IMG/VR virus record: IMGVR_UViG_3300033490_000009 | Location: 1-11,913 of that record | Direction: 5' to 3' (one strand) | Length of the DNA: 11,913 nucleotides | DNA from: a virus | Shown here: positions 1-11,913 of the stretch, piece after piece | How the letters are laid out: the number at the start of each line of letters is the position of its first letter | Position numbering within the stretch: position 1 is the first letter of the stretch | Notes under the pieces: model-generated | Databases searched by the model: none | What the model was told of the DNA's origin: nothing | What the model saw: only the letters and a program-made list of their open reading frames with translations | Position numbers and translations under genes: made by a program

Positions 1-1561
1 CTATCGCTTCTTTTTGCTTGTCAACCCACTCGTAATACTTGCGCTTAATGTCTTCGTAAAACTGCTTGCGGTAGTTAAACCAATCCTGCCATTGCTTCTT
101 TAAAGTTTCAATGTAGTCAGCCCAGCGACGCTCTATGTTATGCTGGGATTGGAGCATGTGTTGCCGCCACTCAGCCCATTCGTCTTTCTTCGTCTCGGTT
201 TGTTTTCCTTCTTCTCCCGTGACACCTAACCCGCTCAAGTCGCCCTTTAGAAGTTTCTTTGCCAATTCTAACGGGTCTTCGGTCATTTCTTCTTTTTTGC
301 CTTTCGTTTTTGCCTCTTTCGCTTTTTGTTGTCGCTCCCATTCTTCGGCTTCCTTGCGGGCTTTCTCGCCTTCGTCTACGAGCGGGCGCAACTCTTTCGG
401 AAGCATTAACTTAGCAAGCCAACTGCTAATTTTGCCCGTCTTTTCGTCAATCCACCTGATTAGGAGTGCGAGACCTATTGCAACCGCACCAATTCCGAGA
501 ATTATCGGGTTTATTACAGCCGCTATGCCCGCCCCGATAACTTTCAGAATATCCCACAACTTACTGAGCCAGCCAACTAAATTCTTAATCCAATCAACTA
601 CTTTGAGTATGCCTAAGGCTTTTAGACCGTCAGCAACCCATTTAATTCCATGCCCCACAGCGCCAAACAAAACAGCCAGCCCCGCTAACACTGCCGCCAA
701 CATTACAATGTGACTGACAAAAGAAGCGAGGGTCGGGTGTGCTTCTTCAAATGCTTTGAGAGAAGCGACTATCTTGTTAATGCCTTCGGCTATGCGCTCT
801 ACCGTGTCAGCAACATTGCCGAGGTTTTCCGCCGTTAGCGCTTGCAACGACGCTTTCAATGTGCTGAGAGCGTCAGTCATTCGGTCAATCTTATTTGCTG
901 TTTCGTCGCTAACTACTACGCCTAATTCACGATACTTAGCAATGAGATTGTCAATTTCTTGTGCGCCCTCACGAAGAATAGGCAGCAATGTGTAGGCTCG
1001 GCGACCAAACATTTCAAACAAAATTTGTGCTTGCTGGGCTTGGTCTGGGATTTTGGCGATTTCTTTCAGCAAAAGCACGAATTGCTCCAACGGGTCGTTG
1101 GTTTGGGATTGCACAGTTTGACCGAGCACTGCTAAAGCCTTCGTCAACTCATTAACTCTGTTTCCTTTCTCAGCAACCGCTTGGGCGGCTTGTTGGAAGG
1201 CTACTTGCATGCGCATGATAAAAAATGGAATTAACTCAGCGTGGATTTCTAAGTCTTGGAGCATGGCACGGTAGACAGAGTATTTTTCTACAGTCGTGCC
1301 GATTTGAAGGGCTTCCTCACGCAACTGATTGGCGTGGCGTGCGCCAGCAACGGCAAGGGCGGTAAATGTGCCCGCAACGACAGCGCCTATCTTAGCGAGC
1401 GTGTTAAGGGCTTCCTCGTTTTGCTTGAAAAACTGAGTTAGCCGCCCAAAGACCGATTGGGCGTGCTGGCTAAGCCCCTCAAGTTGCTGCTTGACCTGAT
1501 TGACCGCTTGCGAAACATTTTCTTGCGCACGAATTAGGATTTCAACCGTTGCCTCTGCCAT
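1..1561 (-). CDS. Tail tape measure protein, first 520 codons only (gene runs off the left edge of the window)
   Basis: Absent from the supplied ORF track because no stop lies inside the window. Hand translation of the minus strand from the ATG (cat at 1559-1561) stays open to nt 2: MAEATVEILIRAQENVSQAVNQVKQQLEGL...QAQILFEMFGRRAYTLLPILREGAQEIDNLIAKYRELGVVVSDE... It has long helical/coiled-coil-like stretches, a hydrophobic block (LASFVSHIVMLAAVLAGLAVLFGAVG...IGAVAIGLALLIRW) and a K/E-rich segment, all typical of tape measure proteins. GGTGA lies 6 nt upstream of the ATG. The gene follows the tail chaperone genes. The + strand ORFs 135-713, 756-995 and 1256-1441 are antisense shadows of it. 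Confidence 0.8.
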   Translation of the reverse strand, partial: MAEATVEILIRAQENVSQAVNQVKQQLEGLSQHAQSVFGRLTQFFKQNEEALNTLAKIGAVVAGTFTALAVAGARHANQLREEALQIGTTVEKYSVYRAMLQDLEIHAELIPFFIMRMQVAFQQAAQAVAEKGNRVNELTKALAVLGQTVQSQTNDPLEQFVLLLKEIAKIPDQAQQAQILFEMFGRRAYTLLPILREGAQEIDNLIAKYRELGVVVSDETANKIDRMTDALSTLKASLQALTAENLGNVADTVERIAEGINKIVASLKAFEEAHPTLASFVSHIVMLAAVLAGLAVLFGAVGHGIKWVADGLKALGILKVVDWIKNLVGWLSKLWDILKVIGAGIAAVINPIILGIGAVAIGLALLIRWIDEKTGKISSWLAKLMLPKELRPLVDEGEKARKEAEEWERQQKAKEAKTKGKKEEMTEDPLELAKKLLKGDLSGLGVTGEEGKQTETKKDEWAEWRQHMLQSQHNIERRWADYIETLKKQWQDWFNYRKQFYEDIKRKYYEWVDKQKEAI

Positions 1562-1591
1562 GCTATCTCACCACACTCACTTGCCCCCTAC

Positions 1592-1623
1592 GGGCAGAAT
1601 TTATTCGGATAAATTCCAAGCCC
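1592..1623. repeat. AT-rich 8-4-8 palindrome GAATTTAT-TCGG-ATAAATTC (1597-1616) clamped by GGGC/GCCC; copy 1 of 2
   Basis: Perfect 8-bp inverted repeat with a 4-nt spacer, flanked by GGGC (1592-1595) and GCCC (1620-1623). It lies between the stop of the ATG-less frame (1631) and the tape measure start (1561). A 19/20 identical copy is at 5634-5653. Confidence 0.6.
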
Positions 1624-1630
1624 GCCCCGC

Positions 1631-1837
1631 TTAGAATAAGCCTTCCGCTTCCTTTATCAATTCCTGCAGGTTTAGCAAAATCAACTCGGTTTGGGCGAGG
1701 TTGAGGTTGAGGAAATCGTCTATGGAGTTGACTATGCGGTATTTGGCAAGTAGGATAAAGATTTTGGTGATTGAAGCGCCCCCCAACCCTAACCCTTCGG
1801 GTTGAGGGGCGGTAACCTTACGCTTGCTGAAAGAAGC
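1631..1837 (-). CDS. Candidate recoded (+1 frame) C-terminal extension of the tail assembly chaperone (gpG/gpGT-like arrangement); no start codon of its own
   Basis: The minus-strand frame shifted +1 relative to ORF 1818-2072 is open from just after a TAG (1838-1840) to TAA (1631-1633). It reads ASFSKRKVTAPQPEGLGLGGASITKIFILLAKYRIVNSIDDFLNLNLAQTELILLNLQELIKEAEGLF. The C-terminal 45 aa look like genuine amphipathic-helix coding sequence. It has no ATG and no GGTGA Shine-Dalgarno, which the other genes here have. The only in-frame alternative start is a TTG at 1784-1786, buried in a hairpin. It sits exactly where the T part of G/GT lies in siphophages. Confidence 0.3.
   Translation of the reverse strand, partial: ASFSKRKVTAPQPEGLGLGGASITKIFILLAKYRIVNSIDDFLNLNLAQTELILLNLQELIKEAEGLF
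1777..1811 (-). promoter_or_regulatory. 13-bp GC-rich stem-loop starting 6 nt after the chaperone stop codon
   Basis: Minus-strand sequence CGCCCCTCAACCC-GAAGGGTTA-GGGTTGGGGGGCG pairs over 13 bp (one G:U) with a 9-nt loop. No T-tract follows, so it is not a classical terminator. It could act as a recoding stimulator, an RNA stability element or a coupling element. Confidence 0.4.
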
Positions 1838-2072
1838 CTAAGGCGGGGCGCTCAAGCCATTCCTCAAACGAGATTTGCTCTCCCGTTTTGAGTGTGTGAA
1901 TTCGCCAGTCAAGCCACGCTACTGCCTCAATCCGCTTGGCGGGCGGAAGGTCTTCAAGGCTCTCAAGCCCCGTGCCAAACCGCTCACAGAATTCAATCAA
2001 GTCTTTCCAACGCAGCAACTTGAAATCGTCTTCACTCCATTTGCCCGCCAGCGTCATGACTTCCTCGGTCAT
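1818..2072 (-). CDS. Tail assembly chaperone-like protein (84 aa)
   Basis: ORF track. ATG overlaps the upstream stop (ATGA), with GAGGTGA 6 nt upstream. It is small and acidic (MTLAGKWSEDDFKLLRWKDLIEFCERFGTGLESLEDL...) and lies between the major tail and tape measure genes, the position of gpG-type chaperones. The function call rests mainly on position. Confidence 0.55.
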   Translation of the reverse strand: MTEEVMTLAGKWSEDDFKLLRWKDLIEFCERFGTGLESLEDLPPAKRIEAVAWLDWRIHTLKTGEQISFEEWLERPALGFFQQA

Positions 2073-2269
2073 TTCCTATCACCTCGGGCGTCTAATACCT
2101 TCAGAATGTCGTGCCAGCGCTCTCGCACCATAGGCTCGGCAGCACCAACCCCTGTCTTGACCAACTTCCAAAAGTCATGCTCCCTCAAACCTACACGCTT
2201 GCAAAACTCGTCTACGCCTTCCTTCATGGCGGCAATGTAAAGCATTTCACGCTCGTAGCGTGTCAGCAT
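2069..2269 (-). CDS. Small (66 aa) helix-turn-helix-like protein, function unknown
   Basis: ORF track, with AGGTGA 6 nt upstream of the ATG. The segment LTRYEREMLYIAAMKEGVDEFCKRVGLREHDFWKLV follows the sigma70-region-4/LuxR-type HTH spacing (LxxxEREhh...EG.s..Eha..hGhs...h...h). I recognised this by eye and did not search it. Confidence 0.5.
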   Translation of the reverse strand: MLTRYEREMLYIAAMKEGVDEFCKRVGLREHDFWKLVKTGVGAAEPMVRERWHDILKVLDARGDRK

Positions 2270-2284
2270 GTCGGCTCACCTTCA

Positions 2285-3097
2285 CTACTCAATCGAAATG
2301 TTGTTAGCGCTACCTTGCAAAGTGAGCGTCATGACCCACAAATCCGAGCCGCCCGAAACGGGCACTCGGCGGGTAGCAATATGGAAATCGTTTAAGGTCA
2401 AAGTCTTGTTGCCTAACGCAATCGTGATATCTACGGGGGCGGGGGCGTCGGCTGCAAAGTGCGGCGTAAATGGCAGGAAGATTTCGCACGAAAATTCGCA
2501 CTCAGCGACGCCATAGGCTGCGAGGTTAGGCAACCGCTTTTCGTTTGCTGCTTTAGCGGAAAAGTCAGCCGTGACATGCGGGTTGCGGCGCACTCGGAGT
2601 TGAAAGCGGCTAACTTGGTAGTTATTGCCCGCAACGGTCACAACGGCGTCGTGCCAAAGCAGAATGTTGCCGCTAAGGGGTTGAATTGTGGGCGCTGTGC
2701 TGATAAGGCTCGGCTTCATTGCCCGCAGAGAAAGTGTCGCACGCAAGGGCTCGCCGACCCGACCTTCGAGCGAAACTTCGTCTACAAGGCAGCCCAAACC
2801 CTTCACAATGTAGTCGTTTGGCGACCCTGCAACAACGCTGAGGGAAATGTCGTTTTTAATGAGGCTCTCAATGGTCTCTAACTGGCTGTCAACGACGGCG
2901 AATTCGGCGCTAATGGTGGCTTCAACGATTGAGTGATAGAAGAAGACGCCGCCAACGGCTTCCACTCGGCGCACATTCTCGTTAATGTTGATTTCGCCGC
3001 CGCTAACCTTGCCAATTTGAAGCCAGTCGCCCGTTGGCTCTTGCCCCTTTGCGGTTTCGATTTTGTAGCCAAAAATGTCTAACGCATGAGTTTTCAT
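2285..3097 (-). CDS. Major tail (tube) protein candidate (270 aa)
   Basis: ORF track, with GGGGTGA 6 nt upstream. It lies between the neck genes and the chaperone/tape-measure genes. The sequence is beta-rich with no enzymatic motif. The call is positional. Confidence 0.6.
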   Translation of the reverse strand: MKTHALDIFGYKIETAKGQEPTGDWLQIGKVSGGEININENVRRVEAVGGVFFYHSIVEATISAEFAVVDSQLETIESLIKNDISLSVVAGSPNDYIVKGLGCLVDEVSLEGRVGEPLRATLSLRAMKPSLISTAPTIQPLSGNILLWHDAVVTVAGNNYQVSRFQLRVRRNPHVTADFSAKAANEKRLPNLAAYGVAECEFSCEIFLPFTPHFAADAPAPVDITIALGNKTLTLNDFHIATRRVPVSGGSDLWVMTLTLQGSANNISIE

Positions 3098-3120
3098 TCG
3101 CTATCACCCCTAACACTTGC

Positions 3121-3549
3121 CTAAGGCAGCATAGTGACCGCCCGCAGGTTAACTCGTGCGACATGTATGTTGGGCACGGCTTCCTCGATTAGGTAATCGA
3201 CGCTAACAACATAAAGCCCGACAGGTTGCCCCGTCGTGAGCGTGTAGGGCGGCGTCGGGGCGTTTAAAACTGCGTTGACTATCGCAGCGGTTAGGCTGTT
3301 TTTGTCTTCAACCGAGCGGGCGATAACATAGACCTCTATGTTGTCGGTCTCCCGATAAATGTGTTGGTGGCTTTCGGGCACAATTTCGCTACTGACAAGG
3401 GCAATCAAAACGAATGGCTTAGTTATGCGGGTTAGGTCGGTGTCTCGGAGCAAACCCACGCCAATGTCGACCTTGCGACCGCCGCTCACGCTATTGAAGA
3501 CCAGGTCTCTAACCTTTTGCGCAACCTCAAAGGCTGCTAACTGCTTCAT
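3121..3549 (-). CDS. Tail completion/terminator-like neck protein (142 aa)
   Basis: ORF track. ATGA overlap with the upstream gp10-like gene. Its size and position (after the gp10-like gene, before the major tail gene) match HK97 gp11 / DUF3168-type proteins. The call is positional. Confidence 0.5.
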   Translation of the reverse strand: MKQLAAFEVAQKVRDLVFNSVSGGRKVDIGVGLLRDTDLTRITKPFVLIALVSSEIVPESHQHIYRETDNIEVYVIARSVEDKNSLTAAIVNAVLNAPTPPYTLTTGQPVGLYVVSVDYLIEEAVPNIHVARVNLRAVTMLP

Positions 3550-4013
3550 TGCGCAACACCCCGCTTGAATGCTTCGGCTAACTTGGCGATTTGGCTACGC
3601 AGCCACTCGGCGGCTGGCTTCATGAAAGGCTTGCGGATAATGTCGCCGACCTTTTCCCAAGTTGCTGATTTGCCCGACCGCCCTTGCTCAACCCGCTTAG
3701 CGAAAACCCAACCTATGCCTCGCAGGTAAAACCGCAGCGCTCGGGCGTTTACGGGCACGATTATGCGCCTATGACCAAATTCGACATATTGGGCGTATTC
3801 AACATTCGTGTAGACCCGCCCCGTTAAGCCTGAAACTTCGAAGTTGATACTTGCCCGCAGCCTACCCGTGTCTACGGGGGCGTGCTTTTTTGCCTCTCCA
3901 GAAGTGTGGGCGACCAACTTAGCGAATGTGTTGTGAATTTCGTCACGCCCCCGCTTCAACTTGCTAATCGTTTCGTTGACGCCTTTAACAGCGACGCTAA
4001 CCTTAAGCGCCAC
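3546..4013 (-). CDS. HK97 gp10-family phage protein (neck/tail component)
   Basis: Contains the family signature ...KKHAPVDTGRLRASINFEV...VYTNVEYAQYVEFGH... The track extends the ORF to a TTG at 4061. I prefer the in-frame GTG at 4011-4013, which has GAGGTGA 5 nt upstream and overlaps the previous gene by only 11 nt. Confidence 0.85.
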   Translation of the reverse strand: MALKVSVAVKGVNETISKLKRGRDEIHNTFAKLVAHTSGEAKKHAPVDTGRLRASINFEVSGLTGRVYTNVEYAQYVEFGHRRIIVPVNARALRFYLRGIGWVFAKRVEQGRSGKSATWEKVGDIIRKPFMKPAAEWLRSQIAKLAEAFKRGVAQ

Positions 4014-4320
4014 TGGCTTCACCTCGCAGGAAAAGTTTGCTAAAGGTCGGGTAGACTTCAAGTTTGGCGATTTGATAGCGCTTGTAGTTGATTTCGAGAA
4101 TGTCGTCGGTTTGGAATTGAAAGTCGCTAAAGACGAAGTAGACTGCGTCGATAGCGCCTAAGTGGGCGTGCATTAAGGATTGTTTGCCCGCCGAAGGCGT
4201 TACGAGATAGCCTACAGCCGTGCCAGCCATGACTTCTGTTACGCTAACCGTGCCGTCAGCGCTTTCTTCAATCCGTTTGCGCCAAACAACTGCGGGCACA
4301 CGAAGGTTTATCCTCGCCAT
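4003..4320 (-). CDS. Head closure / head-tail adaptor protein (HK97 gp9 / SPP1 gp16-like, 105 aa)
   Basis: ORF track. Size, position and the pattern MARINLRVPAVVWRK...DDILEINYKRYQIAKLE resemble head-tail joining proteins. Confidence 0.6.
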   Translation of the reverse strand: MARINLRVPAVVWRKRIEESADGTVSVTEVMAGTAVGYLVTPSAGKQSLMHAHLGAIDAVYFVFSDFQFQTDDILEINYKRYQIAKLEVYPTFSKLFLRGEASGA

Positions 4321-4799
4321 GCGGAAATCACCTGCCTTGCGATTGGTGGAAGTTGATTGAAATCAACCCGCACTTCGGATTGAATGCTGTCTACAATGTC
4401 GGCGTTAAGCAGCCAAACCGCAAGGTGGGCTACGGCGAGGGCTATGTCGTCGGGAATAGTGCTGTTAAAGCCCGCCAAGTATTCAACGACGGCTTCCCCG
4501 CAATAGGGGTAGGCTAAGACTATGAGCCCAAATTGCTGGGCGTTTAAAATGTCAAGGGCAGTGCCTTCGGGTAAAGCGACGACGCTGATAACTTCGTTGA
4601 CGGGGTGAGCGGAAGTTATGCCCCGCCCGTTGCTGAATGTGATAACTTCGGTTATGTTGCGGGGCTCAAGCGGCACGCCAGTTAGGCGCTCCCAAATCCG
4701 CTCGGCAGCGCCAAGAAAGGCTATGGCTCGGTCTTTCGTCTCCGAGCCCCATTGCACCTCGATTAGGTTGAGCACTTGCGCTTGGGCGGCAGCATTCAT
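4308..4799 (-). CDS. gp6-like head-tail connector protein (163 aa)
   Basis: ORF track. ATGA overlap with the upstream gene, and GGTGA 7 nt upstream of the ATG. The N-terminal helical segment ...KDRAIAFLGAAERIWERLTGVPL... is typical of gp6/SPP1 gp15-like connectors. The position also fits. Confidence 0.6.
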   Translation of the reverse strand: MNAAAQAQVLNLIEVQWGSETKDRAIAFLGAAERIWERLTGVPLEPRNITEVITFSNGRGITSAHPVNEVISVVALPEGTALDILNAQQFGLIVLAYPYCGEAVVEYLAGFNSTIPDDIALAVAHLAVWLLNADIVDSIQSEVRVDFNQLPPIARQVISAWRG

Positions 4800-5251
4800 T
4801 GCGACTTCACCTCTCGCTTAAGCCTTTCAACTAAGTCTTCAAACTCGTCAAACCCGTCTTTGATTTCCGCCTTGAATGCCTCGTAGACCTTCTTAGGCGC
4901 AACGCAGAGATAGACATTGACCTCTATGGCGGGAGAAATGACATATTGGCGGGTTAAGATAATGTGGGTTTCGGCGGGCAACTTAACCGTGTTGTTGACC
5001 GAGTAGAAAGCAAAGACTACATGCCCAAATGCGGTCATGAGTTTCCGTGCGCCAGCGGGCGGAAGTGGCTTCTTTGCTATAAGGCTGTTAAGGATATGCA
5101 CCTTTGCGGTCACAGAGAATAGGTTGAATTGCAAGGTGAGCCAATGCTCGCTATCGCCTGAGAAGACAAACTCAGCGACGGCTTTGAGCAATTCTTCTTT
5201 GTTGCCCTTAAGCCACGCCTTAGCACAATTCAAAAGTTGCTTCACTTTCAT
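4796..5251 (-). CDS. Hypothetical protein (151 aa), first gene of the neck/tail operon
   Basis: ORF track. GCAAGTGT-GTTT-GGTGA-GGCGAC-ATG start context. No motif recognised. It is preceded by a roughly 190-nt leader and a consensus-like promoter. Confidence 0.7.
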   Translation of the reverse strand: MKVKQLLNCAKAWLKGNKEELLKAVAEFVFSGDSEHWLTLQFNLFSVTAKVHILNSLIAKKPLPPAGARKLMTAFGHVVFAFYSVNNTVKLPAETHIILTRQYVISPAIEVNVYLCVAPKKVYEAFKAEIKDGFDEFEDLVERLKREVKSQ

Positions 5252-5446
5252 GTCGCCTCACCAAACACACTTGCCACCCGCCCCACGAAATTTCTCTAAC
5301 GCCTTGACGCAGACATACTTGGTCACTCTCTTGAGTTTCCGTATCACTTTTTCTGAAGCGGGTAAGGTTGTAGATTTCTAAGTCTGAAATCGTGCCCGAT
5401 TTTGACACCATTTTGGGCGATTTCGCCCACATTTTGCCCGCCCCGA

Positions 5447-5475
5447 AATCTACAACCCTATCTAAGGTGTGTCAA
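5447..5475 (-). promoter_or_regulatory. Sigma70-type promoter TTGACA-17 nt-TAGATT reading leftward into the neck/tail operon
   Basis: On the minus strand the -35 TTGACA is the complement of 5470-5475, the spacer is exactly 17 nt, and the -10 TAGATT is the complement of 5447-5452. An A/T-rich UP-like tract (ATTTTAAAGAA) lies just upstream. A GC-rich discriminator (GGGGCGGG) follows. Confidence 0.6.
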
Positions 5476-5517
5476 TTCTTTAAAATGCCCTTTTTCTAAA
5501 AATACCCCAAAGCGTGT

Positions 5518-5539
5518 AGTCTTGGTCATGACCAAGACT
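5518..5539. promoter_or_regulatory. Perfect 22-bp palindrome AGTCTTGGTCA|TGACCAAGACT, candidate operator/activator site
   Basis: Read directly from the sequence. Its dyad (5528/5529) is equidistant from the two flanking promoters: 56 nt to each -35 centre and 79 nt to each -10 centre. Confidence 0.6.
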
Positions 5540-5581
5540 TAGACCTGTAGGGGTTTTTTGGGAAAAAGGGCTTCTAAGAGT

Positions 5582-5610
5582 TTGACACGGGTCGGGTAAA
5601 GTCGTAGATT
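5582..5610 (+). promoter_or_regulatory. Sigma70-type promoter TTGACA-17 nt-TAGATT reading rightward (mirror image of 5447-5475)
   Basis: -35 TTGACA at 5582-5587, a 17-nt spacer, and -10 TAGATT at 5605-5610. It points toward the 3' end of the capsid gene, so any product would be a small or antisense RNA. Confidence 0.45.
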
Positions 5611-5633
5611 TCAGGTCGGGTCGGTCGCAGGCG

Positions 5634-5653
5634 GATTTTATTCGGATAAATTC
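5634..5653. repeat. Copy 2 of the AT-rich 8-4-8 palindrome (GATTTTAT-TCGG-ATAAATTC)
   Basis: 19/20 identical to 1597-1616. It lies just downstream of the capsid terminator on the minus strand. Confidence 0.6.
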
Positions 5654-5668
5654 TACTTGGGCAGGGCT

Positions 5669-5713
5669 AAAAAGTAAAAGCAGGAGCGGGAGCGGTTAGA
5701 CCCCCGCCCCTGC
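5669..5713 (-). terminator. Rho-independent terminator of the major capsid gene
   Basis: Minus strand: GCAGGGGCGGGGG-TCTAACCG-CTCCCGCTCCTGC forms a 13-bp stem (two G:U pairs). It is followed directly by TTTTACTTTTT and begins 37 nt after the capsid stop codon. Confidence 0.8.
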
Positions 5714-5750
5714 GGGCTTCTTTACGGGTCTACCTTAACCTACCTTCCTA

Positions 5751-6929
5751 TCACACAATCTTAACCGCCGAAGGCTCGTCGTAAGGCACGCCAATGAAGT
5801 CAGCACGCATTGTAGTAACGAGAATGTCGGTCTGCTTGACAATATCCCGCTGTGTTTCAACCCTCAAGCCACGCCTGACACCAAGCAGGAAGGCTCGGCG
5901 GTTGAAGACCAAGGCGTGCACGGAAGCGGGCACAAAGGCGCTGACGACGACAGGCTTACCGTAAACCTTAGCCAATTCGCCCGTCACGATAGTCGCCTGT
6001 GCCCCATACTTGTCAACCGTGCTAACTTCTTCCCAACCGACCATTTCGGCAAATTTGGCGGGGTTGACGACAACGACGACTTCGTTAGGGTTGACGCCCA
6101 ACTTGCCCATTTGAGCGCACGCTTGCTGAATGTGTTGCGCTGCGAAAGTGCCAATATCAAGCGAGTGAGCGCCCTTCAAAATCCCATTCCAAACCTTAAG
6201 CAGCGGGTCAGTGCTGGAAGTGTCGCCATTGAGGATAGCATTCTCGAGCGCCTCAGCAAAGGCTTGTGCCAACGCTGCTTGGAATTCGGGCATAATCGCC
6301 ACAATGCTATCCTCGGTAACTTCGTCGGCGACTTCAACGCCCGCAGCCAATTTCTTAGCGTCGAGCGTCAAGCCCTGTGCGGAAGCGTTGCTGAGAGTGA
6401 TAGAAGTTGCGGGCGCAACATAAACGACGCTAATCCCGCTGATAGACAGAGGGATTTTGTAGGTCTGGCTCGGCATGTCGACTTGAGGCAGCAATTGGGC
6501 AAGGCTCGGCTGCAAGCGAATGAGTTGCAGCACTCGGTTGGAGAATGTGGTCGGAATGTAGTTGACTAATTCGCTGCCAGTGACCGCCTTTGTGACTTCG
6601 ACGAAGCGGCGCTCAAGCCAGCCCTCAGTGGGCAAGTGGCGCAACCGCCTAATCGAGGCAAAGACAGTGTAGGCGTCGGCAAGGTCTTGCCACTTAGCAA
6701 TTTGCTCGTCGGTCGCCCGCATGAGCAGGAAGTTTTCAAACTTTTCCTGTGCGGTGTTACCCTCAACCTCAATGCGGGCTCGGGCGCTAACGCCCTTAGA
6801 CAAAATTTCTTCGACATTGGCGACCCGCTCTTCGAGCGCCTTGACTAAGCGCTCGGTCGCCGCAACTTTGTCAGCAATGTTTGAAACGACATTAAGCGTC
6901 TTTTCGACTTCTTGCAGCACTTCCTTCAT
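5751..6929 (-). CDS. Major capsid protein, HK97 fold, with N-terminal coiled-coil (delta/scaffold-like) domain
   Basis: ORF track. GGAGGTG lies 8 nt upstream. The N-terminal ~100 aa are helical (MKEVLQEVEKTLNVVSNIADKVAATERLVKALEERVANVEEIL...). The body resembles HK97-family capsid proteins (...IPTTFSNRVLQLIRLQPSLAQLLP...VDKYGAQATIVTGELAKVYGKPVVVSAFVP...). It directly follows the prohead protease gene. Confidence 0.9.
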   Translation of the reverse strand: MKEVLQEVEKTLNVVSNIADKVAATERLVKALEERVANVEEILSKGVSARARIEVEGNTAQEKFENFLLMRATDEQIAKWQDLADAYTVFASIRRLRHLPTEGWLERRFVEVTKAVTGSELVNYIPTTFSNRVLQLIRLQPSLAQLLPQVDMPSQTYKIPLSISGISVVYVAPATSITLSNASAQGLTLDAKKLAAGVEVADEVTEDSIVAIMPEFQAALAQAFAEALENAILNGDTSSTDPLLKVWNGILKGAHSLDIGTFAAQHIQQACAQMGKLGVNPNEVVVVVNPAKFAEMVGWEEVSTVDKYGAQATIVTGELAKVYGKPVVVSAFVPASVHALVFNRRAFLLGVRRGLRVETQRDIVKQTDILVTTMRADFIGVPYDEPSAVKIV

Positions 6930-6948
6930 GCGGTTAACACCTCCTTAA

Positions 6949-7914
6949 TCACTTGCACAACGCTTTTTCTAATTCTCGGCGCAATTGCTCAAGCGACCTA
7001 CGGATGTAGGCGAGCGGGTTTTCCCACCCGCAAGCCTCAAGCAACTCCAATTCCTCAGGCGTGTAAGAGCGAAACTCGGGCGGCTCTTTATCCGCCTTGC
7101 GGTAATACTTCACAATCGCCCGATAAACTTTCTCTCTGTCTTCCTCGGGGATATCGACGCCGCCTCGAGCACCTAACAGCGCCGCCATGGCAGCGACAAC
7201 GCCCCGCCAAATTGCGTAGGGTTTCCCGTCGATTACATCAACATGCGGGAGTTTGTAAGCGCCAAAGGTGTCGAGCCTCTCGTCGTCAGCCCAGAAAAAC
7301 CGCTTAGCATAGCGGCGCTGCTTTTCCTTGTCTTGCAAATCCTCGTTAGTTTCTACGCCCACATACTTGCGCCACCTTTTCTCGCTTTCGTCAGCATTCC
7401 ACTCTCGGTCGAAATCCTCGTAAAGCGGAAACTCAGCGTCATTGTCGGGCACAATGCCTTTCTTCACTAACTCCATGTCGCTATCACCCTCCTTTTGTAT
7501 CAAGGCTTGCGGATTTGCTGGGAGTGTCACAATCGAAGTTTCAATCCACTCCCATTCCGCATAGGTGTTGCCTTCAATTCGCCTCGGAATGAAACCAATG
7601 CTAAGACCTCGCACAATACCTTCGTCGACAAGTTGCTTGATTTCCTGCGCAAACTGTGTGGAAGCGAAAACGAATTGCACCTTAATTGCGTCGTCGGAGA
7701 TTTCGACATTGACGACTTTACCTATGGGGCGGTTAGGGTCGTGCTGCCAAAGGAGCACGGGGTTAGCGAGGTAGTCTTGCAGGTTAATGCAGCCTTTGGG
7801 GTTTACGATTTCGTTGAGCCTATCCTTCACTGCGGTCGTCGCCACGCCCGAGTAGATTTCCCCGCCGCTATCGGTTTCAATTTGCCTTGTGACCAAATAG
7901 AGCATATCTTTCAT
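6949..7914 (-). CDS. HK97-family prohead serine protease (S78-type) with ~175-aa C-terminal extension
   Basis: The N-terminal ~145 aa carry the family pattern ...NPVLLWQHDPNRPIGKV...GLSIGF...ETSIVTLPANPQA. The C-terminal half (...FGAYKLPHVDVIDGKPYAIWRGVVAAMAALLGARGGVDIPEEDREKVYRAIVKYYRK...LEQLRRELEKALCK) is an extra domain. Confidence 0.9.
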   Translation of the reverse strand: MKDMLYLVTRQIETDSGGEIYSGVATTAVKDRLNEIVNPKGCINLQDYLANPVLLWQHDPNRPIGKVVNVEISDDAIKVQFVFASTQFAQEIKQLVDEGIVRGLSIGFIPRRIEGNTYAEWEWIETSIVTLPANPQALIQKEGDSDMELVKKGIVPDNDAEFPLYEDFDREWNADESEKRWRKYVGVETNEDLQDKEKQRRYAKRFFWADDERLDTFGAYKLPHVDVIDGKPYAIWRGVVAAMAALLGARGGVDIPEEDREKVYRAIVKYYRKADKEPPEFRSYTPEELELLEACGWENPLAYIRRSLEQLRRELEKALCK

Positions 7915-7943
7915 TCCCGCTCACCAAAGACACTTGCGCAAGT

Positions 7944-8023
7944 TGGTGGAGGCGGCGGGAGTTGCACCCGCTTCCGACGCCAGCCACTTTGGGCTTAGGC
8001 GTCGTCAACACTCCGTCGCCCCC
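7944..8023 (-). ncRNA. tRNA-like RNA with tmRNA tRNA-like-domain architecture (acceptor stem with G3:U70, T-arm, encoded CCA; no D-arm or anticodon loop)
   Basis: Minus strand reads GGGGGCG-ACGGAGTGTTGA-CGACGCC-TA-AGCC-CAAAGT-GGCT-GGCGTCG-GAA-GCGGG-TGCAACT-CCCGC-CGCCTCC-A-CCA. This gives a 7-bp acceptor stem, a 5-bp T stem with a 7-nt loop, and a closed 7+4-bp hairpin in place of the anticodon arm. It starts 3 nt after the portal stop codon. Confidence 0.45.
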
Positions 8024-8026
8024 ACC

Positions 8027-9958
8027 TCAATCTACGGGCACTATAGTGCACCTGCAATTAATGACTTCTTCGGGTTGCCCTTCGGGGTCGCAAGGGAAAC
8101 GAAGCCGTGCGCCCGACGGCAGCACGAAGTAGTCGTCTAAGTCAACAATGACGCCTTCCATGTCTCTGTGGCTATCCCTAACTCTTTCGTCGTGGGCGGT
8201 AACCCACATTTTGCGCTTAACGCCTACGGCACGGAGGCTTTCCTCGTAGCCCAAGTTAAGCGCCGCCGTCGTCTCGGTGCGGGCAATCCGCTCAGCACGC
8301 CAAGTTTCGAGGTCGCCCAAAACTTCTTCAACCGCACCGATTAGGTCGCTCCAACCGCCGCCCTCGGCTAAAGCGTCGCCAAGTCTGATTTTGAGCTGCT
8401 CCCATGTCGTCTCGGTAATCCAGCGAATTCGCCGCTTGAATGACATTAGGCGGGCTTTAACTTTGGCGTCATAAATCAACGGGTCGACTTCAACGCCAAA
8501 CGCCTTAGGCGTGTCACGGAGAATGTCTTCTAAGACGGGCAACAAGATTTTTGCCAATTCTTCGGCTTCTTCGTCGAGGTTGAAAAGGAAGTCAACGATA
8601 TCCTTGCGGAAATAGGCATTAAGGTCGGATTTAAGACGGCGGCGCAACGATTGGGCGTAATCCTTGACCGCCTCACGCACAAGGCGCTCGTATCTATCGT
8701 GCAGCCGCAGGAATTTGAGCCACATTTCTTTGTAGGTGCGGGGAATTCGCTTCGTAACAACGACTAACTCGTCGCACTCCTTAGTTTGTTGCTGCGGCTT
8801 TTGTTGAGCGATAGGCACGATATTAAGGTTGCCCCACCAAGCGTCGCCCCACGGAAGCGGGTCTTGGAAGCCTAAAGTTTCACGGGCTTCGTTGATTGTG
8901 ATAATGCCCCTGTCAACGAGATTACCCAACGAATTAGCGACCTCGGCGATATTCTCCTTCAGGGCTTCAACTTGGCTAAGGTCGTAAGCGCACCAAAGTT
9001 GCGGGTTGACTTTGGGGAAAAACTGCGTGTTGAGCGTTTCCTCAATCAGCCTAAGGAGCGGGATTATGGTTTCCCGCCAGAAAATCTTGGTTTGCTCTCG
9101 TGCGTTGGCGTAGTTGGCATACTCGTAAATCCCGACGACGGCGGGCGGCACATTCAAGCAGGCTAAGATTTCTTCACGCAGAATTCGTCGCATTTCAACT
9201 AAGTCGCCCGCCTTGAAGGAAGTGTCAATCGTTTTAGTCTCATAATCCGAGCCCTCGAGCAATAGCCACTTAAACCGTTGACCTCGCCCGTGGCGGCTCT
9301 GAATGCGCTCGATAATGCGCTGTTTCGTCGCTTCGGGCAACGAAGACTTGGTGATTAGGATTGTCAACGGTTGTGCGCCGTGAAACAGGTATTCCGCTAA
9401 CAGGCGGTCGCATTCGTTGATTAGCGTGACTGCGTTTTGAATGGAGTAAAGGAGCGATAAACCTTGCGCCCTCGGGTCAGTCGGGTCGGGCAACTTGAAG
9501 TGCACTATGTCGTCAACCGACACGGTCACAACTTTGTCGGCGGTCATAATTTGGGCTTCCTTGCCGTCAACGGTGAAACTAATGCTGCTTGGGTGAATGT
9601 AGTCAAGCCCGAGAAACCGTCGCCCGACTTTGCGGATAAGCCAGTAGGAGTTTCCGAAGACAATCAAGTCGGTTGCGGTCGTGGCGGTAAAGTCGTTGTT
9701 GCTCATTCCGACGGCGACCGATTTGGCTAAGTGCCCAAAGTTTGGGTCGTCTTCGTTTAACTCAAATTCGCCGTTGTAGACTAAGAGTGGCACGGAAGCG
9801 GCTGAGTTGCTAATGCGGCTTAAGGCAGCCCGCACGATAGGGTTGCGGATAATGTCGGCTAAGGGGCTCGTCGGCATGCTCGTCTCGACGAAGTAAACCT
9901 CTCCCGCAGCGTCTCGGTAAAGCCACTTTTGCACCAACTCACGCAGTTTCTTCAGCAT
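8027..9958 (-). CDS. Portal protein (HK97-type) fused to a C-terminal Mu-F / SPP1 gp7-like head morphogenesis domain
   Basis: The N-terminal ~400 aa are portal-like (...FGNSYWLIRK...LLLEGSDYETKTID...REEILACLNVPPAVVGIYEYANYANAREQTKIFWRETIIPLL...). The C-terminal ~230 aa carry the Mu-F signature ...RAERIARTETTAALNLGYEE...WVTAHDERVRDSHRDMEG...INCRCT. The track start (GTG at 9976) lies inside the GCAAGTGT box. The ATG at 9956-9958 has GGTGA 5 nt upstream and is preferred. Confidence 0.9.
   Translation of the reverse strand: MLKKLRELVQKWLYRDAAGEVYFVETSMPTSPLADIIRNPIVRAALSRISNSAASVPLLVYNGEFELNEDDPNFGHLAKSVAVGMSNNDFTATTATDLIVFGNSYWLIRKVGRRFLGLDYIHPSSISFTVDGKEAQIMTADKVVTVSVDDIVHFKLPDPTDPRAQGLSLLYSIQNAVTLINECDRLLAEYLFHGAQPLTILITKSSLPEATKQRIIERIQSRHGRGQRFKWLLLEGSDYETKTIDTSFKAGDLVEMRRILREEILACLNVPPAVVGIYEYANYANAREQTKIFWRETIIPLLRLIEETLNTQFFPKVNPQLWCAYDLSQVEALKENIAEVANSLGNLVDRGIITINEARETLGFQDPLPWGDAWWGNLNIVPIAQQKPQQQTKECDELVVVTKRIPRTYKEMWLKFLRLHDRYERLVREAVKDYAQSLRRRLKSDLNAYFRKDIVDFLFNLDEEAEELAKILLPVLEDILRDTPKAFGVEVDPLIYDAKVKARLMSFKRRIRWITETTWEQLKIRLGDALAEGGGWSDLIGAVEEVLGDLETWRAERIARTETTAALNLGYEESLRAVGVKRKMWVTAHDERVRDSHRDMEGVIVDLDDYFVLPSGARLRFPCDPEGQPEEVINCRCTIVPVD
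8029..8057 (-). promoter_or_regulatory. Possible promoter TTGCAG-17 nt-TAGATT for the tRNA-like RNA, embedded in the portal 3' end
   Basis: On the minus strand the -35-like TTGCAG is the complement of 8052-8057, the spacer is 17 nt, and TAGATT is the complement of 8029-8034. That is the same -10 hexamer as the two promoters at 5447-5610. G1 of the tRNA-like element lies 5 intervening nt downstream. Confidence 0.3.
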
Positions 9959-10010
9959 GTCAATCACCAACAACACTTGCGCCCCGCTAAGTGAGTTTGG
10001 TGATTGGCGA

Positions 10011-10238
10011 ATGAGCGAGCGAGCGAAATTGTTTGTGCTGATTTATGCAATTACCGCTATTGTGTTGCTTGAAGCGATAGCGCTGTGGAAGGGCATAGAC
10101 GGCGTGGCGCTGTCGGCGACTATAGCGGCTATCGCTTTATTAGCCCCGTCGCCGCTCAAGTTTTTGCAGGTGGGCAACATTAAGGTTGAAAAGTTGGGCA
10201 AGGGTAACGGAGACGACAGCGGCGAGGCGGGGAGGTGA
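10011..10238 (+). CDS. Small two-TM membrane protein (75 aa), function unknown, in the position usually held by the small terminase
   Basis: MSERAKLFVLIYAITAIVLLEAIALWKGIDGVALSATIAAIALLAPSPLKF... has two hydrophobic helices and an acidic/Gly tail. The ATG at 10011 has GGTGA 7 nt upstream. The track start at 9957 has no Shine-Dalgarno and overlaps the portal start. Its stop TGA lies inside the terminase Shine-Dalgarno. Confidence 0.5.
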   Translation: MSERAKLFVLIYAITAIVLLEAIALWKGIDGVALSATIAAIALLAPSPLKFLQVGNIKVEKLGKGNGDDSGEAGR

Positions 10239-10243
10239 GGGGT

Positions 10244-11653
10244 ATGGCTGCTAAGCGGCAGGTTAGGGTTGAAGCCCCCGCAATCGATTTCTCCCGCTAC
10301 CGCAGCATAGCCGATTTCGCCGAAGATTGCTTGTTTGTGTTTGAAAACAACCGCAAGCAGCGGATTAAGTTGACGCCATATCAGCGGCGCTGGCTGCGTG
10401 AAGTTGAAGACCCCCGCTGGAAGGTTGTTGTGATTTGCGTGCCTAAGCGGGTCGGTAAGTCGCTTTTCAGCGCAATCGTGGCGGTCTATTGGGCGCTGGC
10501 ACGAATGGGCGCTACGGTCGTTGTCTTGAGCACTTCCGAGAAACACGCAAGTAGCGTGACCTTCAAGTATGTGCGCCAGTTTTGTCGGGTTAGCGACCAA
10601 GTCGCCGCTGAAGTTGCTACGCTGGCGCAAAACAAGGTCGAGTTTCGCAACGGAAGCGTGATTAGAGCCGTGCCATGCACGGTTGAAGCGGTTGCGGGAA
10701 TTGCGACCGATTTGCTCATAATCGACGAGTTGGCGCTGATTGACGACGAAGAAGTTGTGCAAATCGCTATGAGCCAAACTGAGAAAGAAGACGCTAAAGT
10801 GCTGATAACCTCGACCGCCTCGGAGCACGGGCACTTGCTCCATAGGCTCTATTTGAAGCACATTAACGGGGAAGCCGAGAAAGAGCGGTTGCGGTTTATC
10901 TATCACGGGGCGGAAATCTATGCTGAGCACCCGTTTATCACGCCCGAGTGGCTCGAGGAAAGGCGGCGGCAAATGCCTGAGTTTCTGTTTCGGCAGTATC
11001 ACCTTAATGAGTGGGGCGTTGCGGGCGAAAAGGTCTTCAAGCCCGAGTTGGTCGAAGCGGCGGTTAGAGACTATCCGCTGCCGCTGCCAATCGAGCGGAT
11101 TGAGGAAGTGTTGGGCGAGAAAGTTGTGGGCTTTGTGTTTACCGCTGCGATTGACCGAGCGTTGCCTATGAGTAAGCACGGCGACCGCACGGTCGGCTGC
11201 GTCGTGGCTAATTGTTTGACTGAGGGCGGCAAGGAAAAGTTAGTCGTCGTCGACTTAAAGGTTTTCCCGACGGGCGTCGCCGAAGAAATTAAAGCGTGGC
11301 TAATGCAAGTTGCCAGCCAATATTCGCTAACGAGCGTCGTGCTTGAAACCTATCAGGCTTATGACTTATATGCTTGGTGCAAGCAGCGTGGGTTGCCCGC
11401 AAAGTTAGAGCACGCTACGAGAGAAGCCCAACTCGCTGCGTTTCCCGTGCTGATTATGGCGTTTGAGCAAGGCAAGATTATCATTCCCCGCCACGAATTG
11501 CTGATTGATGAATTGCTTGCGTTGGAGCGCACTAACGGCGGAAAGTTTAAGGCAGGGCAAGGCAAACACGACGATACCGTTTTCGCTCTCCTTTGGGCGG
11601 TCTACGAGGCAATCAAGTTTTCCCCGTCTCGGGCGGATATCACGATTATTTGA
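10244..11653 (+). CDS. terL: Terminase large subunit
   Basis: Walker A-like VPKRVGKS, Walker B-like DLLIIDELA, and a C-terminal RNase-H-like nuclease region with ...GKHDDTVFALLWAVY. The track start (GTG at 10235) sits inside the GGAGGTGA Shine-Dalgarno. The ATG at 10244 is 5 nt after it. Confidence 0.9.
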   Translation: MAAKRQVRVEAPAIDFSRYRSIADFAEDCLFVFENNRKQRIKLTPYQRRWLREVEDPRWKVVVICVPKRVGKSLFSAIVAVYWALARMGATVVVLSTSEKHASSVTFKYVRQFCRVSDQVAAEVATLAQNKVEFRNGSVIRAVPCTVEAVAGIATDLLIIDELALIDDEEVVQIAMSQTEKEDAKVLITSTASEHGHLLHRLYLKHINGEAEKERLRFIYHGAEIYAEHPFITPEWLEERRRQMPEFLFRQYHLNEWGVAGEKVFKPELVEAAVRDYPLPLPIERIEEVLGEKVVGFVFTAAIDRALPMSKHGDRTVGCVVANCLTEGGKEKLVVVDLKVFPTGVAEEIKAWLMQVASQYSLTSVVLETYQAYDLYAWCKQRGLPAKLEHATREAQLAAFPVLIMAFEQGKIIIPRHELLIDELLALERTNGGKFKAGQGKHDDTVFALLWAVYEAIKFSPSRADITII

Positions 11654-11824
11654 AAACTGGCGGCAAAAACCGCAATTTTCGACTTGACAGCCCCGCAACT
11701 TTGCGACACAGTGAAATGTGGTTGGCGGTGTAGGAAGGTTAGGAAAACGGCGGGTTTTTGGCTGATTTTGGGCTATTTTTCTTCAACCTTCACCGCCAAA
11801 TGCCTGTTGTAGTTGCCCAGTGAG

Positions 11825-11847
11825 CCAAGAAGCCCGCAAGGGGCGGG
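11825..11847 (-). terminator. Terminator-like hairpin CCCGC-CCCTT-GCGGG-CTTCTT, second copy of the module at 5703-5723
   Basis: Minus strand CCCGCCCCTTGCGGGCTTCTTGG is nearly identical to + strand 5703-5723 (CCCGCCCCTGCGGGCTTCTTT). It is oriented to stop a leftward transcript entering from beyond the right edge. One minus-strand frame has a TAG at 11900-11902. Confidence 0.3.
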
Positions 11848-11913
11848 ACAAAACATGTGACGGCAAAACGGAGGAGCGTGACATTCAACCCGACAAAGGC
11901 TATTTCCATCGGG

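Follow-up and report, generated by a model that had tools for sequence, protein, structure and literature searches.

The late promoters of T4-type phages, TATAAATA, are read by gp55, a phage protein of the sigma family. The stoperators of the cluster A mycobacteriophages (L5 and Bxb1) are 13 bp in length, match the operator of the early lytic promoter, and bind the repressor. In the leaderless genes of Actinobacteria and Deinococcus-Thermus, a -10 motif precedes the start codon by a constant distance, and this spacing is rigid because the transcript must begin exactly at the translation signal. We know of no described class of promoter that is locked to a Shine-Dalgarno (SD) sequence and yields mRNAs beginning at the ribosome-binding site. 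Here, we analyzed a stretch of viral DNA of 11,913 nucleotides (nt) (positions 1 to 11,913 of the IMG/VR record IMGVR_UViG_3300033490_000009; the whole stretch is hereafter the window), in which seven gene starts are preceded by a short box, (G)CAAGTG, located 5 nt upstream of the SD. We tentatively regard this box as a late promoter element read by a sigma factor of the phage. In appearance, its closest analogue seems to be the start-associated sequence (SAS) of cluster K mycobacteriophages, an asymmetric short repeat found in one orientation in 11-19 copies per genome (PMC3203893). SAS is 13 bp long (GGGATAGGAGCCC), includes the SD, and lies 3-7 bp from the start codon; it occurs directly upstream of the start codons of a subset of genes, is conserved across subclusters, and is essentially absent from the host (PMC3203893). 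The genes marked by SAS are restricted to non-structural genes of the right arm with gaps of >50 bp (PMC3203893). The box in the window is likewise asymmetric, in one orientation, and present in multiple copies at the starts of a gene subset, but 5 free nt separate it from the SD, its distance to the ATG is 15-20 nt, and it marks structural and lysis genes, often in junctions of 19-25 nt.

A first-pass annotation of the window had described GCAAGTG followed by T or A, in the sense orientation and at a fixed gap from the SD, at seven gene starts. All seven sites were located as described, with both the orientation and the fixed gap confirmed; each box lies on the sense strand of the downstream gene, which begins 15-20 nt further on. 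For the portal gene the box stands, while the start codon is corrected to 9958-9956. The proposed eighth base (T or A) is not conserved, as G and C are found in relatives, and thus the unit comprises (G)CAAGTG, 5 variable nt, and the SD. The initial G is a preference rather than a fixed base (G, C, T, and A occur), and the core is CAAGTG-N5-SD with CAAGTG invariant. The seven modules are listed below, each with its count among the orthologous contexts of close relatives:

Positions 1559 to 1584, minus strand: tape-measure module, GCAAGTG (1584-1578), AGTGT, GGTGA (1572-1568), GATAGC, and ATG (1561-1559); 7/7 contexts.
Positions 3095 to 3120, minus strand: major tail tube module, GCAAGTG (3120-3114), TTAGG, GGTGA, TAGCGA, and ATG (3097-3095); 6/6 contexts.
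Positions 5249 to 5274, minus strand: orf151 module, GCAAGTG (5274-5268), TGTTT, GGTGA, GGCGAC, and ATG (5251-5249); 10/10 contexts.
Positions 6927 to 6956, minus strand: capsid module, GCAAGTG (6956-6950), ATTAA, GGAGGTG, TTAACCGC, and ATG (6929-6927); 10/10 contexts.
Positions 7912 to 7937, minus strand: prohead protease module, GCAAGTG (7937-7931), TCTTT, GGTGA, GCGGGA, and ATG (7914-7912); 11/11 contexts.
Positions 9956 to 9980, minus strand: portal module, GCAAGTG (9980-9974), TTGTT, GGTGA, TTGAC, and ATG (9958-9956); 6/6 contexts.
Positions 9987 to 10013, plus strand: module of a small open reading frame (ORF) that has two transmembrane segments and precedes TerL, CTAAGTG (9987-9993), AGTTT, GGTGA, TTGGCGA, and ATG (10011-10013); 6/6 contexts.

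The box of the tail tube gene begins immediately 3' of the upstream TAG stop codon (3123-3121), that of the capsid gene overlaps the TGA stop codon of the protease gene, and the portal module stands back to back with the small-ORF module. On both strands of the window, GCAAGTG was observed 9 times against 2.19 expected, and none of 200 shuffles reached 9; the claimed enrichment thus holds. With the SD included, the excess over shuffles of the window is far larger, namely 6 observed against 0.01 expected for GCAAGTGW-N4-GGWG and 7 against 0.06 for YAAGTG-N5-GGWG. Instead of the two other copies of GCAAGTG counted earlier, there are three away from gene starts, the one at 4773-4779 having been missed:

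Positions 4773 to 4779, minus strand: background copy inside the gene for a 163-aa protein, without an SD at N5.
Positions 6632 to 6638, plus strand: background copy, antisense in the capsid gene, without an SD at N5.
Positions 10832 to 10838, minus strand: background copy, antisense in TerL, without an SD at N5.

Across the whole prophage to which the window belongs (see below), CAAGTG occurs away from starts 12 times in 28.5 kb, that is, at the chance level of ~14 (a rough estimate). A Chi-like or restriction-related word was considered and rejected, as the off-start copies do not exceed this level.

We then compared the seven gene starts with those of close relatives, comprising 12 IMG/VR records with 92-96% identical capsids and further loci, in which the starts were located by protein similarity alone and not by the motif. 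In all of the 56 distinct orthologous upstream contexts (56/56), [CT]AAGTG was found at 5-6 nt from the SD; the box is thus kept in related phages, as the first-pass proposal demanded. At orthologous sites both the box and the SD are invariant, while the 5-nt spacer and the upstream flank show a majority identity of only ~0.6-0.8. By an automatic measure, 63 of the 86 unique contexts have their first SD-like pentamer at N5; most of the others have G-rich spacers in which GGTGA is still at N5 by eye, and a spacer longer than 6 nt was seen in 0/86. The small-ORF box reads CCAAGTG or TCAAGTG in relatives, and the box of orf151, the first gene past the capsid terminator, is kept although the upstream spacer is wholly different between relatives. 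The 549-aa tail gene has its box within the gene before it, where the bases are read as the codon GCA, CCA, TCA, or ACA followed by AGT-G. The encoded amino acid thus changes while CAAGTG stays constant, which points to selection on the nucleotides. Altogether, the box is a real, strongly selected, phage-specific element marking late-type genes.

Distant relatives retain the architecture with altered letters. CAAGTG itself is retained in L049, of which the capsid is 74% identical. In L047/L048, L051, L052, and L056 (51-64% capsid identity), another hexamer (TAAATG, TAATTG, TAAGTG, or CAATTG) is followed by N5 and GGTGA, giving the general form YAA(A/G/T)TG-N5-GGTGA. At true starts, the fourth base of the box is A, G, or T and never C, and the final triplet of the box therefore looks like a start codon. 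The upstream gene in L056, L051, and L052 terminates at the TAA of the box, and the intercistronic spacer is fixed at 19 nt. The portal and small-ORF starts of L047 are 38 nt apart and share a single palindromic CAATTG, with N5 to an SD on either side. No box was found in L054 and L055, of which the capsids are only ~30% identical.

The window belongs to a metagenome contig of 29.9 kb, which was rebuilt from two loci. A 53-bp stretch at window positions 11788-11840 is 98% identical to GWIN 1318-1370, which adjoins the gene for a tyrosine integrase at the other end of the contig, and is an att-type direct repeat. Because this repeat beside the integrase recurs at 11788-11840, the element is regarded as an integrated prophage of a temperate siphovirus of ~27 kb, and the final 70 nt of the window as host DNA. 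A relative, the rebuilt IMG/VR record 3300005855_000003, adjoins tRNA-Glu(CTC) and an integrase, and its integration site is this tRNA gene instead (L023:6878-6956). The host gene flanking the latter relative is 85% identical to a gene on the chromosome of Candidatus Fervidibacter sacchari PD1, on the basis of which we assign the host to Candidatus Fervidibacter. Fervidibacter is a hyperthermophile of hot springs. Searches against Pfam recognized an HK97-type capsid, an S78 prohead protease, a portal protein with a MuF domain, TerL, a tail tube protein, and an HK97 gp10-like protein. The capsid had no match among 50,697 GenBank phage records, and no close capsid relative was found encoded in GTDB genomes.

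Over the whole prophage, the box precedes 13 of the 28 genes. These are the genes for the portal, the protease, the capsid, orf151, the tail tube, the tape measure, and three distal tail proteins, together with a G8-domain fibre-like gene, the endolysin gene, the small membrane ORF before TerL, and a gene for a 79-aa zinc-finger protein adjoining the integrase. The integrase, primase-polymerase, 76-aa, 193-aa, and sigma genes have no box in the prophage. Genes that overlap the preceding one and are translationally coupled lack it as well. The gaps upstream of some box-free genes are 25-200+ nt, while the junctions of boxed genes are often only 19-25 nt; thus, the box is not a mere gap filler but marks a class of genes. 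The same gene-class pattern was found in the L053 lineage. Among SD-plus-start contexts, AADTG at N5 was found in 12/47, 9/41, and 7/28 in phage DNA but in 0/48 in ~32 kb of host DNA (the PD1 locus plus the prophage flank). Directly upstream of the box of the zinc-finger gene, L023:8040-8105 holds tandem 12-nt repeats (ACTAATCGTAGC-like, 4 units), which may be arm-type or regulator binding sites.

These comparisons bear on an alternative in which the box has no function separate from the SD and is either part of an extended ribosome-binding site inherited by duplication or an extra stretch of pairing with 16S rRNA. The box always adjoins an SD, as this alternative predicts. On the other hand, the spacer between the two evolves freely while the box is invariant, where the box falls within upstream coding sequence it persists despite changes in the encoded amino acid, lineages of 51-64% capsid identity show this architecture with another hexamer, and the sampled host genes lack the box. 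Furthermore, the geometry argues against pairing between the box and the 3' tail of 16S rRNA. We give this alternative almost no credence.

A candidate reader of the box is encoded on the same contig. A 215-aa protein (P0034; L046:10001-10648), ~6 kb beyond the low-coordinate end of the window, is specified by the gene at the end of the primase-polymerase (replication) operon. It looked sigma-like by eye, and its close homologs have been named sigma24 by the Joint Genome Institute (JGI). Its AlphaFold model (pLDDT 70) comprises two helical domains with an acidic linker between them, and the best 50 Foldseek matches in PDB were all sigma factors, the first being SigH (E 8e-5). The NCBIfam model TIGR02937 matched a 230-aa homolog in L053 with an E value of 1.4e-10 and P0034 with 4e-4, both just below the curated cut-off, while searches of P0034 against Pfam, PHROGs, and PDB sequences gave no match. 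The model and these matches lead us to regard the 215-aa protein as a divergent sigma-70/ECF-type (extracytoplasmic function) sigma factor. Two sigma lineages, 25-30% identical to each other, occupy the same genome position, and scans of IMG/VR and JGI metagenomes detected only these two clades. The sigma of the window family has a 4-residue deletion in the helix-turn-helix of region 4 relative to the L053 homolog, of which region 4 looks ordinary. The box and the sigma co-diverge, in that the divergent sigma lineage (25-30% identity) goes with the YAAWTG variant of the box. The 193-aa protein beside the sigma belongs to no recognisable family.

A sigma factor needs cognate promoters, and the box is the only asymmetric motif that we found to recur at late-gene starts, the other intergenic repeats found being a palindrome, terminator-like sequences, and att-like sequences. 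We favor the reading in which the box is a -10-like late promoter element without a -35 that the phage sigma recognizes, so that the SD G's would be the transcription start. We put its probability at slightly below one half (about 0.47). A phage-specific promoter core had been the last of the options listed in the first-pass annotation; it is now the best supported one by virtue of the phage's own sigma and of the divergent operons that offer no other promoter candidate, whereas the rigid N5 is left unexplained by it.

The divergent operons start at the back-to-back portal and small-ORF modules. TerL and the 75-aa ORF with two transmembrane segments are transcribed away from the portal gene, the start codons of the two directions being 52 nt apart (window 9956-10013), an arrangement that is unusual for the packaging module of a siphovirus; the product of the 75-aa ORF looks less like a small terminase than like a membrane protein and may be a holin. 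Between the portal start and the small ORF-TerL start, 52 nt apart in the window and 38 nt in L047, there are only boxes and SDs. No sigma-70-like promoter was predicted in or around this spacer, and the flanking coding DNA shows codon-pattern variation only. A transcript begun beyond the opposite SD would fold into a hairpin of -27.9 kcal/mol (z -4) burying its own box and SD; a start at the SD avoids this sequestration. In addition, the box has invariant A's at positions 2-3, and 6-7 nt separate its end from a G (the SD G's are at +6/+7). The usual distance from a -10 element to the transcription start is also 6-7 nt, so that the positions of the A's and of the G's match those expected for a -10 element and the transcription start that it sets.

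The junction between the capsid gene and orf151 also speaks for such promoters, because it holds the following feature:

Positions 5680 to 5713, minus strand: strong intrinsic terminator after the capsid gene, with a 14-bp stem (TTTTACTTTT); bidirectional.

The terminator bounds the capsid transcript, and therefore a new start is needed for orf151 and the tail genes; the orf151 box of L005 follows the T tract of the terminator after only 17 nt. We propose that the sigma would be produced along with the early genes, and that a holoenzyme of host RNA polymerase and the phage sigma would open the DNA at (Y)CAAGTG and initiate 6-7 nt downstream of the box, at the first or second G of GGTGA. Each late message would then begin at its own SD with a leader of 11-18 nt. 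About a dozen such starts would yield nested transcripts that boost the portal, protease, capsid, tail tube, tape-measure, distal tail, and lysis genes, and re-initiation at orf151 would bypass the strong terminator behind the capsid gene. The binding of the sigma to the box, the position of the transcription start, and the reason for the short leader are what we infer in this proposal. In the STAB-SD leaders of Bacillus, the RNA is shielded by a ribosome sitting on its 5' end, which offers a possible reason for so short a leader.

In its supposed working, the closest analogue of the box would be the T4 late promoter with gp55. Both systems pair a phage protein of the sigma family with a single short -10-like element lacking a -35, of which many copies lie just upstream of late genes and give nested late transcripts. 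They differ in that the sequences are unrelated and the box is not A/T-rich, that the sigma of this phage is built of two domains (regions 2 and 4, ECF-like), that the phage is a 27-kb temperate siphovirus, and that the box is locked 5 nt from the SD, unlike the T4 elements. The leaderless-gene signature shares a promoter element rigidly spaced from a translation signal, but the presumed 5'-end signal here is the SD and not the start codon. The box belongs to neither the T4 late promoters nor SAS, from which it differs in its sequence, its free spacer, the class of genes marked, and its register locked to the SD. We found no description in the literature of the box motif or of transcription in Fervidibacter phages.

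Several observations weigh against a promoter. The N5 spacing to the SD is constrained in both directions, even within spacers of 250-500 nt; a promoter needs the SD merely somewhere downstream, and longer leaders are therefore expected, but none occur. No box with N5-GG was found without a gene start. There is no -35 element (information content <=0.4 bit at -36..-1) and no upstream k-mer common across genomes, TCAC being enriched in one genome only. ECF-type sigmas normally need a -35, and their promoters carry a conserved AAC-like -35 16-17 nt upstream of the -10. The box is, furthermore, not A/T-rich, and its start-codon-like fourth base (A, G, or T, never C) hints at a reader acting on RNA. 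Separately, a sigma-54 promoter on the opposite strand was rejected, because the TCACC-TTGC spacing is 8 nt and not 5, and because distant relatives use CAATTG (by eye).

The same observations are accommodated by an element acting at the mRNA level, which would be recognized within the 30S initiation complex or by a late translational activator made by the phage and, as may be the case for SAS, would raise de novo initiation at genes without translational coupling. The two-sided rigidity of N5 and the complete association of the box with an SD and a start codon are natural in such a scheme. So are the final three bases that resemble a start codon, and the position of the box, which often abuts or overlaps the upstream stop codon and in L056, L051, and L052 supplies it at the fixed 19-nt spacing. 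It is the genes without coupling by overlap that carry the box, the 5 nt ahead of the SD are C-poor, and single box sites form no stable RNA structure (z -0.9 to +1.9). We found no RNA structure shared around the boxes; only the divergent portal/small-ORF spacer folds, which is due to its inverted layout. Nevertheless, the primase-polymerase, integrase, 76-aa, and 193-aa genes also need de novo initiation and have no box, and the 0/48 host contexts show that the box is not a general feature of the ribosome. The 3' tail of 16S rRNA would be expected to end short of the box. For the divergent portal and TerL genes, no promoter is visible that could supply boxed mRNAs, and longer leaders would sequester their own SD. 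One site has a perfect TTTACA-17-TATAAT promoter with its predicted start inside the box, and the sigma factor would be left without a known target motif. The rigid spacing keeps the translation-enhancer or standby option of the first-pass annotation alive as the main rival, although we rank it below the promoter and consider it rather less likely. A specific form of it, in which AA plus an AUG, GUG, or UUG (never CUG) triplet exactly 5 nt upstream of the SD would offer the initiating ribosome or the initiator tRNA a standby contact, or would be the target of a late translational activator of the phage, is in our judgment unlikely. A mini-ORF starting at the GTG of the box was also tried and rejected, as its frame relative to the gene varies (in frame at the portal gene, out of frame elsewhere).

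A promoter at the box remains our preferred reading, and two further options from the first-pass annotation fare worse. If a host or phage endoribonuclease cut in or beside YAADUG, monocistronic mRNAs with short leaders would result, in keeping with the orientation lock and the position at gene junctions; a hairpin just upstream of the tape-measure box in relatives could shield the upstream fragment. However, none of the phage proteins searched against Pfam and PHROGs was recognized as a ribonuclease, the sites have no structure in common, the exact spacing to the SD is explained no better than by the promoter model, and the missing promoter of the divergent spacer is left unsolved. Processing is conceivable with nothing specific in its support, and we hold it to be improbable.

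The other option, a stoperator-like repressor site that blocks elongation into the late genes in the lysogen as in cluster A, has to be weighed against a second repeat. A 20-bp palindrome, GAATTTAT-N4-ATAAATTC, occurs four times in the prophage:

Window positions 1597-1616 and 5633-5655, and GWIN 3485 and 3860 (L046): the palindrome copies.
Positions 1597 to 1616, strand not applicable: palindrome GAATTTATTCGGATAAATTC, from which 13 nt lead down to the CAAGTG core at the tape-measure gene.

Each copy is followed by a box within 7-24 nt, and the palindrome is also found upstream of boxes in relatives (L006 orf151, L049 protease, and G855 endolysin). It is probably the operator of a dimeric regulator, and its location 7-24 nt upstream of the boxes suggests the place expected of an operator over a promoter. 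The box shares with the cluster A stoperators its asymmetry, its many copies in a single orientation tied to transcription, and its short intergenic gaps, and the phage is temperate (integrase, att repeats, and tRNA-Glu integration site). Stoperators have no fixed register to the SD, whereas the box is locked 5 nt from it; the box marks late-type genes only, and the early region, which should contain an operator copy, has no box; 6-7 bp is short for the site of a monomeric repressor; no repressor gene was recognized; and the palindrome is the better operator candidate. The stoperator parallel is therefore not supported, and we consider a repressor site at the box very improbable.

Three of the spacers in the window have features of their own. 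The capsid-orf151 spacer (window 5251-5751) is 500 nt here versus ~130 nt in relatives such as L005, and contains twin sigma-70-like promoters, TTGACA-17-TAGATT, on opposite strands at 5475..5447 (minus) and 5582..5610 (plus), both inside repeated GGGTAARGTYGTAGATTTC segments; the plus-strand promoter could give an RNA of ~100 nt ending at the terminator. The portal-protease spacer of 112 nt (window 7915-8026; conserved core 7945-7969) carries a GC-rich stretch, GGGTGCAACTCCCGCCGCCTCCACC on the sense strand, that is nearly invariant in all relatives and could be a small gene or an RNA element. In some relatives, this spacer holds a box-like ATAAGTG-N5-GGTGG followed by a short ORF initiated with GTG. 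The 257-nt gap at window 1562-1818, which separates an 84-aa tail chaperone-like gene from the tape-measure gene, holds an ORF (1631..1786) and a match to a sigma-70-like promoter (1660..1633), and a frameshifted extension of the chaperone may lie there. The corresponding junction in relatives is short and has the hairpin AAGAAGCCGAAGGTTTCTT directly before the box.

Fervidibacterota is a hyperthermophilic lineage that has been cultured only recently, and, to our knowledge, nothing is known of gene expression in its viruses. In this phage group, the motif is a precise and easily scored marker of late genes and true start codons. If the promoter reading is true, the box and the SD together would form a compact cassette of promoter and ribosome site of ~25 bp, from which mRNAs begin at the SD; the new sigma would be paired with its target, and the design principle could find use in thermophile expression systems. 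If the box instead acts on RNA, the start-associated sequences known from mycobacteriophages would have an independent second example, more cleanly laid out, and the question of their function would become directly testable. An mRNA-acting box that switches on the de novo initiation of late genes at ~80 degrees C would represent a new kind of bacterial translation-initiation signal.

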